From a virus, in the IMG/VR virus record IMGVR_UViG_3300005573_001011, positions 55,081 to 119,080 of that record: DNA of 64,000 nucleotides. One strand, 5' to 3'. Position numbers and translations under genes: made by a program. Under the pieces are notes generated by a model that was given only the letters and a program-made list of their open reading frames with translations, did not search any database and had not been told where the DNA came from. Positions within the stretch are counted from its first letter, which is position 1, and the number at the start of each line of letters is the position of its first letter. This document shows, piece by piece, positions 29 through 12,697 of this stretch.

Positions 29-622
29 GTGAGAATAGTTATGGAAACTCAGTATAATCCTGAGTATCTTGAAAGTGTAAGAAAGTGGAAAACACCACAA
101 GACGTACTTAAATATATCGAAACGTTTTCGTATGCTTCTGAGTTTTTGCCAGATACGAAAAGGAATCTACAACTCTATAAGATCTACCATCCTAAAATGC
201 TTGATTTAGACACTCTATATAAAACAAGACGTGGAACATGTACTAACGTTTATTACTTCTTTGTAAAGACAGTAAATACGATTGACCCTTCCTATGCTGC
301 TTTTGCTATAACTATGACGTGGAGGGGTCCTTGGTCTGGTGTAAATAAGATTTGCTTCTGGTTTGAAGATTTTAAAGTCAAGAGTTTTCGTTGGACACCA
401 CAAGACGGTGGCAAACTCGTTTTAGATGAACCCTTCTCTTCTTTGGAGAGTGCTAGAGATTTCTACATAAGTATGGCAAAAGAGAGCTTAAAACCAAAAG
501 AGATACCTATAAAATACGGTATTTCGATTTTAGACATAAGAGTACTACGAGACCTAAAAATACAGCATGCATTAGAAGTTTTTGGTATAGACGATGGATA
601 TAGTATATACAGAAAGTTCTAA
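29..622 (+). CDS. transglutaminase-like protein, probably degenerate active site; paralogue of 11277-11801
   Basis: LYKTRRGTCTN aligns with VFSLKSGCCLD of the paralogue; shared PFxSL(E/D)S..DFY..M motif; the His and Asp of the triad are not evident. Confidence 0.5.
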   Translation: MRIVMETQYNPEYLESVRKWKTPQDVLKYIETFSYASEFLPDTKRNLQLYKIYHPKMLDLDTLYKTRRGTCTNVYYFFVKTVNTIDPSYAAFAITMTWRGPWSGVNKICFWFEDFKVKSFRWTPQDGGKLVLDEPFSSLESARDFYISMAKESLKPKEIPIKYGISILDIRVLRDLKIQHALEVFGIDDGYSIYRKF

Positions 623-1463
623 GTTTTATGTGGTTACCAATGAAGAAAGAGAAGAGGTAAAAAACTACCTGAAGAACAGTGGCAAGACCGTAGGCAGAGT
701 TGGAATTAGCGGTACTGTTCATGAAGGACATAAGTTTATTATAGAGACAGTTAAAAAATTGTACGATGTCGTTATTGTAGACTATGCTTCTTGGGTTCGT
801 TTAGTTTCTTCTCGCTTGTTTTCCAGTTTCGCACTTCCAAGTGCAGTCACTCCTCCTGATAAGGTAGTGGAGAGCCTTAAAAGGAATAACGTTAGCTTTG
901 ACTACTTTTTTTGTACTAATATAACTGAAAAAATTTCGAGAGAAACTAGTTTCTTTAGAAGTTACGAAAGTGAGTTTCGTAACGTGTTAAAAAAGCTTGG
1001 ATTTACGAGAACTAGCTTAGTAACACTATTGTGGCAAATTATAGTTGAAGAAGTAACCGGAGACACTGAAGAAGTTGGTCAGTCGTTTCTAGGTCCAAAA
1101 AATATTTTGATTGACCTTGTTTCGAAAGCTGTCGTTGGCCAGAATGCTAAGTATTTTCCAAACTATATTTGGAAATCCTATAGAGATCCGTCTACTTTCA
1201 CTCTTGAGTCAAGAACATCTTCATCTATCTTGCTCGGGAAAGTTGCTAGAGAAGCCTATTCCGAACTACTTCGTGGTAAGACTGATGCTAAATATTTTGC
1301 TAACCTTGGGTCTGAGTTTTATAGACAGGAACCAGGGTTTACTATAATAGACTACAAACGTCTGGAAAAAGTAGACCACGTAACAGATAATTGCGTTCTT
1401 GTTTTTTCTGAAGAAAACAAGTTCGACTACATTTTTATTAAAGACGGAATGATAATTTCCTGA
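594..1463 (+). CDS. pantoate-beta-alanine ligase (PanC)-like HIGH-family nucleotidyltransferase, divergent
   Basis: SGKTVGRVGISGTVHEGH resembles PanC GKxIGFVPTMGALHEGH; FLGPKN resembles FGEKD; YRDPSTFTLESRT resembles VRExDGLALSSRN. Confidence 0.65.
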   Translation: MDIVYTESSKFYVVTNEEREEVKNYLKNSGKTVGRVGISGTVHEGHKFIIETVKKLYDVVIVDYASWVRLVSSRLFSSFALPSAVTPPDKVVESLKRNNVSFDYFFCTNITEKISRETSFFRSYESEFRNVLKKLGFTRTSLVTLLWQIIVEEVTGDTEEVGQSFLGPKNILIDLVSKAVVGQNAKYFPNYIWKSYRDPSTFTLESRTSSSILLGKVAREAYSELLRGKTDAKYFANLGSEFYRQEPGFTIIDYKRLEKVDHVTDNCVLVFSEENKFDYIFIKDGMIIS

Positions 1464-1479
1464 GTTATGGAGAAACTTC

Positions 1480-2022
1480 ATGCAAAAAACTGGGTGTACT
1501 TGCGACTCTACATGCTATAATTTTTCCTGCTCTTGTAACACTACTTGCTATGGTTATCAAGCATGTCAGTACGGATGCGATAGTGGTTCGTACGGAGTGT
1601 CCTGTCCTTGTAATACTTCTTGCTATTCTTTTTCGTGTAGCTGTGATGCTAGGTGCCATAATTATGGTTGCACTTGCAATACGCTTTGCCATGGTTACCA
1701 AACATGTATGTACGGGTGCGATAGTTCTTGCTATAATTATGGCAAAGCATGCGAATGTGATACGACGTGTTATGGATATGTCCCATGTTCGTGCGACAAT
1801 ACGCGTTACGGGTATACATGCACATGCGATGGCTGGTGCGACTCGTATACTCCTTGCTCATGCTACGGCCCAGGATATACTGTATGCACTTGCTATACGA
1901 CATGTTATGGCTATTCCCCGTGCTCGTGCAATAATACGTGTTACGGATTTGTATGTACGTGCAATGCAACTTGTTACCAAGAAAGATTTGGTGCAGATGC
2001 TTTATCGTTCGAACTGTTCTAG
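1480..2022 (+). CDS. Cys/Tyr-rich repeat protein, about 14 CxCxxxCY-type units
   Basis: Units CTCDSTCY, CSCNTTCY, CPCNTSCY, CECDTTCY, CSCNNTCY, CTCNATCY etc.; GGAG upstream of ATG; lies directly after the PanC-like gene. Confidence 0.8.
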   Translation: MQKTGCTCDSTCYNFSCSCNTTCYGYQACQYGCDSGSYGVSCPCNTSCYSFSCSCDARCHNYGCTCNTLCHGYQTCMYGCDSSCYNYGKACECDTTCYGYVPCSCDNTRYGYTCTCDGWCDSYTPCSCYGPGYTVCTCYTTCYGYSPCSCNNTCYGFVCTCNATCYQERFGADALSFELF

Positions 2023-11277: not shown

Positions 11278-11801
11278 TGAATATTGAAGAGCAAAAGTTT
11301 CTCTACAACCAGTGGATCACTAGTTGTAAGAGCTTTCACGATGTAGATTCTTGGTTTAAACAAGGGTTCAGGTTTTCTGCCGAGCGTGAAGAAGAGTGCT
11401 GGAGAGAAATAAGAAGTGGCACGTTGCCTCCGCGGGTCCTTAAGCCGTACGAAGTGTTTTCACTAAAGTCTGGGTGCTGTCTCGACATCACTTGGTTTAC
11501 TGGAAAGTCTTTAAGCCTCATTAACAGTTCTTACAATATAAGGTACAATACAATCGTTACTATTAGATTCAAGCTGATCCATACTCTTGTCACTTTTACA
11601 TATAATTCTAAGCTCTATACTATTGACTATTCTTTTCCGGAGACGATACCTGCTTTTAAGGCAATGTGTGGTCTCTGGGGGCCATTTGATAGCTTAGATT
11701 CTATCGTAAAAGATTTTTACTTAAAAATGAATCCCAAGTATAAAAATGTGGACTACTATCACGAAGGGTGGCCTGACCTGCGTGATTATGTAGCTTCGTA
11801 A
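11277..11801 (+). CDS. transglutaminase-like cysteine protease/transferase
   Basis: PYEVFSLKSGCCLD (Cys), LIHTLVTF (His) and YTIDYS (Asp) in transglutaminase-core order; start placed at the overlapping ATG 11277. Confidence 0.65.
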   Translation: MNIEEQKFLYNQWITSCKSFHDVDSWFKQGFRFSAEREEECWREIRSGTLPPRVLKPYEVFSLKSGCCLDITWFTGKSLSLINSSYNIRYNTIVTIRFKLIHTLVTFTYNSKLYTIDYSFPETIPAFKAMCGLWGPFDSLDSIVKDFYLKMNPKYKNVDYYHEGWPDLRDYVAS

Positions 11802-11812
11802 GAGGAAAACGA

Positions 11813-12697
11813 ATGGAAATCTTAGCAAACTATGACGAGCTAAAAAAAGTTGTCAGTGGACTAAAGAGCCAAGGAAAAGTAATAGGTCGCTTCGGAACTT
11901 GCGGTGGTATTCACCAAGGTCATTTAGCTGGCATAGACTTTGTTCGAGACAAAGCAGACGTTGTCATTGTGACGTTTAACGACTGGATTAATCCAGCTAT
12001 CTACTCGATGTCTGGACTCCCAGACTTCATGTTTCCACCATATACTAGACAAAGACCAGACGATATAGAGAAACTTGAACAAACTAGTAAAGTAGACTAC
12101 CTTATTAAAGTTCCTTTTTCAGAAAAGATTTGGAACGAAGTAACTGAAGCTCGGTCAGTTCTAGTGAAGGAAGACGAATTCTTTAGAAAGCACAACTTGC
12201 TTACTAATCCAAATGCACAGTGGTTTGGCTTAATAGCTGCTATAGCAGCACAGTGGTATTGTCCGGAACACGACCTTGCAGACATAGTAGGATACGGAGC
12301 GAAAGACGCTGTTTATGTCTTGCTGGCTGAAGCAATTCTCAGGAAGTACGACAAAGGAGTGTTAGGAAAAGTTATAGAGTTTTACCCAGTTGTAAGAAGT
12401 AAAGACTTGTTTCCACTTTCTTCTTCTGAGCTACTTAGTACTGATGTAGAAAAGGTTACTAAAGAGAAACAACTCTTCGAATATTTTAAGCACTGCTATC
12501 TAGAGTTGAGGAAGACAGGGAGGGTTCCCGAATATAATTTGGAAGAAAAATGGAGACTTTATCTGATTGAGAAAGATACTCTGCAATTTGTAGAGGTTTT
12601 AGAGTCTGGTAAACCTTACTTTTTTGTTTGCTTAAAACCGTACAAAGTCGGAAATCGTACTTTAGTTTTTAGAGATTGTTTTGATTTTGTTGCTTAA
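11813..12697 (+). CDS. PanC-like HIGH-family ATP-dependent ligase, copy 2
   Basis: LKSQGKVIGRFGTCGGIHQGH..ADVVIVTF, GYGAKD and PVVRSKDLFPLSSS follow PanC motifs in order. Confidence 0.75.
   Translation: MEILANYDELKKVVSGLKSQGKVIGRFGTCGGIHQGHLAGIDFVRDKADVVIVTFNDWINPAIYSMSGLPDFMFPPYTRQRPDDIEKLEQTSKVDYLIKVPFSEKIWNEVTEARSVLVKEDEFFRKHNLLTNPNAQWFGLIAAIAAQWYCPEHDLADIVGYGAKDAVYVLLAEAILRKYDKGVLGKVIEFYPVVRSKDLFPLSSSELLSTDVEKVTKEKQLFEYFKHCYLELRKTGRVPEYNLEEKWRLYLIEKDTLQFVEVLESGKPYFFVCLKPYKVGNRTLVFRDCFDFVA

Follow-up and report, generated by a model that had tools for sequence, protein, structure and literature searches.

What would a phage do with two copies of a gene pair in which a relative of pantothenate synthetase (PanC) is joined to a transglutaminase-like (TG-like) protein? 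The question is raised by a 64,000-base stretch of DNA, here called the window, which covers bases 55081-119080 of the 119,080-base IMG/VR virus record IMGVR_UViG_3300005573_001011. Since this 119-kb record has a completeness rating of 38%, the intact phage should be ~300 kb in size, and the source is a jumbo phage of that order. To our knowledge, the only role known for PanC is the final step of vitamin-B5 synthesis. Our best reading, which we put forward tentatively, is that each gene pair encodes a ligase plus peptidase or acyl-transfer module that matures fibre proteins.

In module 1, the TG-like gene (copy 1, P0001) occupies positions 29-622 and the PanC-like gene (copy 1, P0002; 289 aa) positions 594-1463; in module 2, TG-like copy 2 (P0003; 174 aa) lies at 11277-11801 and PanC-like copy 2 (P0004; 294 aa) at 11813-12697, all on the plus strand. 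An earlier note on this DNA had described these four open reading frames (ORFs) as a gene pair present twice. The ORFs lie where the note placed them, and BLASTP and profile comparison confirm that the pair is duplicated; only the start of TG-like copy 1 needs correction. It is taken as the ATG at 41, giving 193 aa, because the GTG at 29 falls inside the GAGGTGA preceding that ATG and because the database copy is 193 aa long. From these comparisons, 29/41-622 with 594-1463 and 11277-11801 with 11813-12697 are two diverged copies of one gene pair. P0002 and P0004 match by BLASTP at 2e-13, with 32% identity across 112 N-terminal residues, and by profile-profile alignment at 97.3% (E 1.9e-11, 99 columns); overall identity is 24-27%. 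The direct BLASTP match of P0001 to P0003 is weak (E 0.052), and hhalign of P0001 against the P0003-family profile gives 97% probability (E 8e-11, 138 columns).

Two word-based searches over 5.8 billion clusters returned four relatives of the PanC-like proteins: two near-identical copies (that of copy 2 being 98% identical) and the more distant P0006 and P0059, which share 51% identity with copy 2 and 58% with copy 1, respectively. Each of the two copies thus has a distant counterpart of its own; the duplication is therefore older than the separation of copy and counterpart, and both copies have been retained. The duplication of the module is both real and old. In both modules the TG-like gene comes first, and the PanC-like gene follows with a 29-nt overlap in module 1 and after an 11-nt gap in module 2. 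All junctions within and around the modules are tight and carry Shine-Dalgarno-like sequences, and the start of PanC-like copy 1 is conserved in P0059. The two genes of each module are predicted to be translationally coupled.

The larger gene of the module is predicted, from sequence and model alike, to encode a PanC-fold, HxGH-type ATP-binding enzyme with an altered acyl pocket. P0004 scores 40.5 bits against the Pfam Pantoate_ligase family (cut-off 20.7) over residues 3-206, while P0002 falls just below that cut-off, at 19.2 bits and over residues 19-62 only. Among solved PanC sequences, P0004 matches 3mue at 1.6e-8. A Foldseek search with the P0004 model found pantothenate synthetases in all 50 of the rows listed, headed by 1iho at 5e-11; the predicted local distance difference test (pLDDT) of this model is 85-94 over most of the first 110 residues and below 50 beyond residue 238. 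The ESM Atlas cluster nearest to P0004, a mostly viral Pantoate_ligase cluster (score 0.89), is a lead only. The PanC-like fold proposed in the earlier note is borne out by the Pfam, solved-sequence and Foldseek matches. To examine the active site, we aligned six phage PanC-like proteins with the true PanC that adjoins panB in an Agarivorans genome. Invariant across all seven are residues that include G25, G31, H34, G36, H37, G162, K164, R195 and S204, so that the ATP motifs are kept, as had been claimed: HxGH, the Gly and Lys of GxKD, an Arg and one Ser of the SSR region. In P0002 these motifs read HEGH (43-46), GPKN (at 167) and ESR (at 205), and in P0004 HQGH (34-37), GAKD (at 162) and SSS (203-205).

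The pantoate site is a different matter. We mapped the pantoate-binding glutamines by motif spacing to Q72 (in VNPxQF) and Q164 (in GEKDxQQ) of the Mycobacterium tuberculosis (Mtb) enzyme, both named among the conserved active-site residues of that enzyme (PMC5772511). In all six phage proteins the VNPxQF glutamine is replaced by I, L or V, and the second glutamine of GEKDxQQ by Y, L or I. Motifs of the copy-2 type are WINPAIY (at 58 in P0004) or WINKLIF, and GAKDAVYV or GAKDASLV; those of the copy-1 type are WVR--LV and GPKNILID. The suspicion that the NPxQF motif is not intact was thus correct for both P0002 and P0004, its glutamine being substituted in each. From this pattern, the acyl substrate probably differs from pantoate and is more hydrophobic. 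The proteins resemble PanC (EC 6.3.2.1; PF02569, TIGR00018; 1iho, 3mue, 2ejc) in fold, in the HxGH, GxK[D/N] and S-S/R region and in their length of ~290 aa; they differ from it in the hydrophobic residues at the two glutamine positions, the SSS for SSR in copy 2, the absence of panB and panD, and the TG-like gene alongside.

Could the PanC-like genes nevertheless be auxiliary metabolic genes supplying the host with pantothenate? The passage of P0004 over the Pfam cut-off and the pantothenate synthetases filling every listed Foldseek row speak for this. However, the panC equivalog model TIGR00018 has a cut-off of 212.75 bits, and P0004 and P0002 reach 41.1 and 17.1, about one-fifth of it or less; both glutamines are lost; and neither panB nor panD has a match at E up to 1 anywhere in the 119-kb record, which is 38% complete. 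We regard pantothenate synthesis as very improbable. The replaced glutamines, the scores far below the equivalog cut-off and the lack of panB and panD matches, genes whose absence here the earlier note had also remarked, together mean that the PanC-like proteins are not pantothenate synthetases, in line with its suggestion that they act otherwise.

The smaller gene of the module is predicted to encode a small cytoplasmic DUF553 transglutaminase-like (papain-fold) protein. DUF553 (PF04473) is family 3 of the 1999 transglutaminase-like superfamily. The DUF553 family is placed among papain-like enzymes (PMC10318531). Against the Pfam cut-off of 20.5, P0003 scores 21.5 bits and P0001 has no match. 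In a full HMMER search of 1.84 billion representatives, the family came to 51 proteins at E up to 0.001, with 15 of them at 1e-10 or better, and DUF553 was matched (E up to 0.01) by 23 of 24 aligned family members, P0003 included. Residues C68, H102 and D117 of P0003 fall in invariant or near-invariant columns of the family, and the triad Cys68-His102-Asp117, read from sequence, appears intact. In P0001, which looks like a degenerate member of the family, Cys71 is kept, with N106 standing in the place of the His and R121 in that of the Asp; the earlier impression that this copy lacks His and Asp therefore stands. A tree of the family, built from 40 rows after dropping 13 sequences as long or multi-domain (P0017, P0035, P0038, P0042, P0051 and P0055) or as short (P0026, P0037, P0041, P0043, P0047, P0050 and P0052), has no resolution and speaks neither for nor against a single origin of the three phage copies; the branch leading to copy 1 is 5.0 long.

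The P0003 model has a pLDDT of 95.3, and the solved structures closest to it all belong to enzymes with the papain/transglutaminase fold that depend on a Cys. The first is the CPR-C4 protease (Z 12.0, root-mean-square deviation 3.6, 145 residues aligned), followed by vasohibins (Z about 10), PeiW (Z 9.0), PeiP (Z about 9), TglA and LapG (both Z 8.9), the amide synthase GdmF (Z 8.1) and arylamine N-acetyltransferases (NATs; Z about 7); a fold search of BFVD with the same model gave no match at E up to 0.001. Taken with the DUF553 match and the hhalign result for P0001, the CPR-C4 superposition upholds the transglutaminase-like fold that had been proposed. P0003 shares with CPR-C4 (7ob6) and the vasohibins (6j4o) the core fold at Z 10-12, with the catalytic Cys and His in place (PMC9108980). 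Identity to them is only 10-12%, however, there is no SVBP-like partner, phage copy 1 is degenerate, and the third catalytic residue of P0003 would be an Asp side chain (D117), unlike the Leu carbonyl of CPR-C4 and vasohibins. CPR-C4 cleaves casein, according to the same paper (PMC9108980). Judging from the model, a peptidase would be a better first guess for the TG-like protein than a cross-linking transglutaminase.

If the larger protein does not make pantothenate, what might the pair act upon? The earlier note had placed each module directly upstream of a repeat protein. The short distances hold: 16 bp (1464-1479) lie between PanC-like copy 1 and a Cys-rich CxCxxxCY repeat gene (1480-2022, plus strand; 180 aa, no Pfam family), whose ATG is preceded by GGAGAAAC, and 14 bp (12698-12711) lie between PanC-like copy 2 and the gene for a 3049-aa collagen-like (Gly-Tyr-Ser) fibre (12712-21861, plus strand). 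The common neighbour of the modules is, however, a collagen-like fibre gene together with glycosyltransferases, not two unrelated repeat proteins. Module 1 ends an operon that also contains, in this order, a gene for a 405-aa protein, the gene for a 739-aa collagen-repeat fibre (L034:2423-4642), a LamG protein gene and a 126-aa gene (L034:5928-6308); the module stands three genes downstream of the fibre gene. Over 101 residues the 126-aa protein, whose gene immediately precedes TG-like copy 1, shares 38.6% identity with the C-terminal end of the 739-aa fibre, and it may be a spare or alternative fibre tip domain. The 3049-aa fibre combines collagen repeats, proline-poor in their Gly-Tyr-Ser and Gly-Ile-Ser triplets, with a CBM5/12-like insert and a C-terminal Peptidase_S74 chaperone domain. 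In both collagen-like fibres only about ten residues precede the repeats. Just before module 2 lies a gene for a 272-aa protein (10459-11277, plus strand), the stop codon of which overlaps the ATG of TG-like copy 2 (TAATG); this protein has no Pfam family, no PDB sequence match and no usable Atlas match.

Our best reading is that the PanC-like and TG-like proteins would act as one unit on the virion fibre proteins, that is, the collagen-like fibres, with the Cys-repeat protein perhaps a further target of module 1, for which it is a possible substrate. The PanC-like enzyme would activate a carboxylate as an acyl-adenylate and join the acyl group to an amine, and the Cys-His-Asp partner would trim, reverse or relay the acyl or peptide group. 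The partner in module 1, being without His and Asp, would probably bind substrate only. We infer the cooperation of the two proteins, the protein nature of the substrate and the choice of substrate; we favour such a coupled, fibre-acting unit because the two genes are translationally coupled, keep one order in both copies, have both been retained for long and lie beside fibre genes, and because operons joining a ligase to a TG-like peptidase are known from the literature. Complex prediction for P0004 with P0003 (alignments A7 and A8), run without controls, gave an ipSAE of 0.00 in both runs, which we count neither for nor against this reading.

Those operons are among the closest known parallels. 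In bacteria, operons of an ATP-grasp ligase, alpha-E and a TG-like peptidase have been predicted to tag peptides (Iyer et al. 2009, cited in PMC3495828 and PMC6376114), and in operons of a ligase and a TG-like peptidase, inactive TG-like domains are interpreted as peptide binders (PMC3495828). The phage module is like them in that the gene of an ATP-dependent amide ligase would be paired with a TG-like gene. It is unlike them in that the ligase has the PanC fold and the setting is a phage fibre region. There was no ATP-grasp match among the genes scanned, the module neighbours being PanC-fold or without an assigned family; alpha-E and Anbu genes did not turn up in general scans, and no search was dedicated to them.

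One specific form of the proposal is that phages have turned the PanC fold into a protein ligase which, with its TG-like partner, forms or edits a covalent amide on the fibres; we consider this possible, albeit unlikely as it stands. The carboxylate adenylated would then be the fibre C-terminus, an acidic side chain of Gly-X-Glu triplets, or that of a group to be attached, and the amide would anchor, tag or cross-link the collagen-like tail fibres, with a cycle of ligase and peptidase like that of tubulin tyrosination but derived from an enzyme of vitamin synthesis. BclA-BxpB attachment was considered as a precedent for covalent collagen-like anchoring and was dropped, as the paper is marked retracted.

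The lasso-peptide pathways, which the earlier note had invoked, offer a likeness of logic only. McjC is an adenylating, amide-forming enzyme of the asparagine-synthetase type. McjB belongs to family C96/PF13471 (PMC10318531). In both systems a TG-like peptidase is paired with an adenylating, amide-forming enzyme. The phage ligase, however, is from another superfamily, and its neighbours are proteins of 180-3049 aa, not short leader-core peptides. Neither PF13471 nor a lasso C family was found in the module proteins, for which Pfam at E up to 1 returned only DUF553, Pantoate_ligase and one chance-level row at 0.15. The module belongs neither to the ATP-grasp pairs nor to the lasso B/C families, and its PanC-like genes do not qualify as true PanC. 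A related possibility is maturation in the manner of ribosomally synthesized and post-translationally modified peptides (RiPPs), in which module 1 would process a Cys-repeat precursor by a leader peptidase and an amide-forming enzyme, following lasso-peptide logic. The start of the Cys-repeat gene 16 bp after PanC-like copy 1 and a radical SAM/SPASM gene at 23883-25337 would fit. However, the TG-like protein beside the Cys-repeat gene is the very copy without His and Asp, no such peptide adjoins module 2, and the module proteins match neither Transglut_core3 nor any Pfam family besides the two named above. We consider this improbable.

The glycosyltransferase surroundings raise an alternative of their own. 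Four glycosyltransferase genes separate module 1 from module 2, and the whole region is one of tail-fibre and glycosyltransferase genes; the block (2458-8952, plus strand) begins with a gene for a 1055-aa GT4-GT2-GT2-methyltransferase protein, followed by GT2, GT4 and GT9 genes. By an all-versus-all comparison of the ORFs of the record, a third TG-like gene (168 aa) was found upstream of the window, at 13151-13657 of the record (L033:3652-4158), in another glycosyltransferase block (GT9, GT4 and GT-D). Its product is 33.5% identical to P0003 (E 3.5e-24), scores 29.9 bits against DUF553, has the triad residues and, of the three copies, is closest to bacterial proteins (~40% identity). The modules could instead serve glycan tailoring: a small acid or sugar acid, turned into an amide by the PanC-like enzymes, would decorate the glycosylated collagen-like fibres, with the TG-like protein a NAT-like Cys acyl-transferase. 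In favour of this, each of the three TG-like genes is within or next to a glycosyltransferase block, the TG-like fold recurs at Z 7-8 in N-acyltransferases and the amide synthase GdmF, and the known PanC substrate is a small hydroxy acid (PMC5772511). On the other hand, the peptidases, at Z 10-12, are structurally closer than the acyl-transferases, and TG-like copy 1 is without the His and Asp required for acyl transfer. This alternative is unlikely, though the strongest of the rivals.

The third TG-like gene also bears on another alternative, in which the TG-like proteins would belong to the tail and act as peptidases, cutting peptides of the host envelope or peptidoglycan upon infection, and the PanC-like genes would be functionally separate neighbours. 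The gene lies between a coiled-coil gene and a PAAR tail-tip gene, the latter (L033:4118-4486) overlapping its end. Among the structural neighbours of P0003 are the pseudomurein endoisopeptidases PeiW and PeiP and also LapG. By a crude script, 37 of 50 family representatives have a hydrophobic, signal-like N-terminal segment and 20 of 50 also a lipobox-like motif. The phage copies, unlike most DUF553 relatives, are without such an export-type N-terminus, and they have no lipobox-like motif; P0003 is barely over the family cut-off and P0001 under it. Against this alternative, two of the three TG-like genes are in translational coupling with a PanC-like partner, both pairs having one gene order and having been retained through long divergence, copy 1 is without His and Asp, and the TG-like proteins (168-197 aa) have no recognisable tail-attachment domain. 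An envelope peptidase seems to us a little less likely again than glycan tailoring.

Several observations weigh against our reading of a ligase and peptidase unit that matures fibres. The homology of P0002 and P0004 is supported statistically only for the N-terminal third (~100 residues); beyond that, their GxK[D/N], P..R and S-S/R columns align only in a global MAFFT alignment. PanC-like copy 2 carries Ser where the SSR motif has Arg, and we know of PanC chemistry on small molecules only. The top structural neighbours of P0003 are peptidases, not cross-linking transglutaminases, and because 37 of the 50 representatives have the hydrophobic N-terminal segment, the TG-like family may act on envelope targets. 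The third TG-like gene is not beside a repeat protein and has no PanC-like partner, there being only two PanC-like genes in the record. The sole bacterial locus of a TG-like homologue that was read (one of one, in Agarivorans) has no PanC-like neighbour, and the only PanC of that genome is ~4 Mb away, beside panB. In addition, no independent genome with the pair was found in IMG/VR, metagenome contigs, cultured phages or related fragments.

The searches behind this last result were as follows. Pattern scans of IMG/VR with P0004, P0006, A6, the 272-aa protein, A9 and A10 as queries gave no relative, nor did scans of metagenome contigs with A3 and P0008. Related phage fragments were chosen through the tail sheath gene (57841-59790 in the window): 28 were linked in this way, the five largest were searched, and none of the five has either gene, which is uninformative because the fragments are 14-23% complete. 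Among cultured phages, tblastn with P0004 gave three records at ~26% identity, one of them an annotated bacterial panC in a Salmonella record and two unannotated; P0003 gave no record; and the true PanC matched 13 records (38-56% identity), with no protein of the divergent kind among them. Neither PHROGs nor PADLOC has a family for any of P0001-P0004, and PADLOC has none for the third TG-like protein. A literature search found no paper on PanC-like proteins in phages or on pantothenate synthetase in jumbo phages, and did not find the pairing of PanC-like and TG-like genes in print.

Both modules are intact in a 99%-identical strain from another study, the contigs of which cover 1-1701 and 11421-12860 with no frame break; the only indel of that strain in these intervals is intergenic, behind 11805. 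Among 40 of its 244 differences, TG-like copy 1 has four synonymous and one non-synonymous and PanC-like copy 1 one and two, respectively, numbers too small to use. DNA near-identical to 10400-12800 occurs in metagenome runs labelled as hot springs, sediment and rhizosphere; among the nine rows listed, which come from eight studies, four contain at least half of the sampled sequence words.

Other features can be noted briefly. Nearly all genes within the first 50 kb are on the plus strand, and no tRNA genes were found. In a scan of positions 1-13000, promoter-like sites (20, compared with 28.6 in shuffles) and terminator-like sites (8, compared with 7.2) were not above background. Two small ORFs, at 2140-2424 (plus strand) and 7642-7938 (minus strand), flank the glycosyltransferase block in inverted orientation; they are 80% identical over 60 residues, and each contains a hairpin of the same sequence (2154-2177 and 7848-7880). 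A contig of run X3 (depth 16.9) is recorded as passing from position 2612 to position 12674 across 30 other letters. It may represent a variant that lacks module 2 and the glycosyltransferase block, or the match, at 80% likeness, may be due to chance. Elsewhere, two paralogues of 207-213 aa that are 48% identical lie at 39187-39828 and 87052-87675 of the record (the latter at 31972-32595 of the window), and there are further paralogue sets at 44041-47988 and 53188-56099 of the window.

For the interpretation of phage genomes, counting the PanC-like genes of the module as vitamin metabolism is contradicted by the evidence presented here. Virome surveys could miscount such genes in this way because they pass the Pfam pantoate ligase cut-off. 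If our reading is true, a PanC-fold enzyme without a pantoate site, kept as two old paralogues with a protease-fold partner near fibres, would extend the range of reactions credited to this fold and would suggest that phages use enzymes to modify their receptor-binding fibres covalently.

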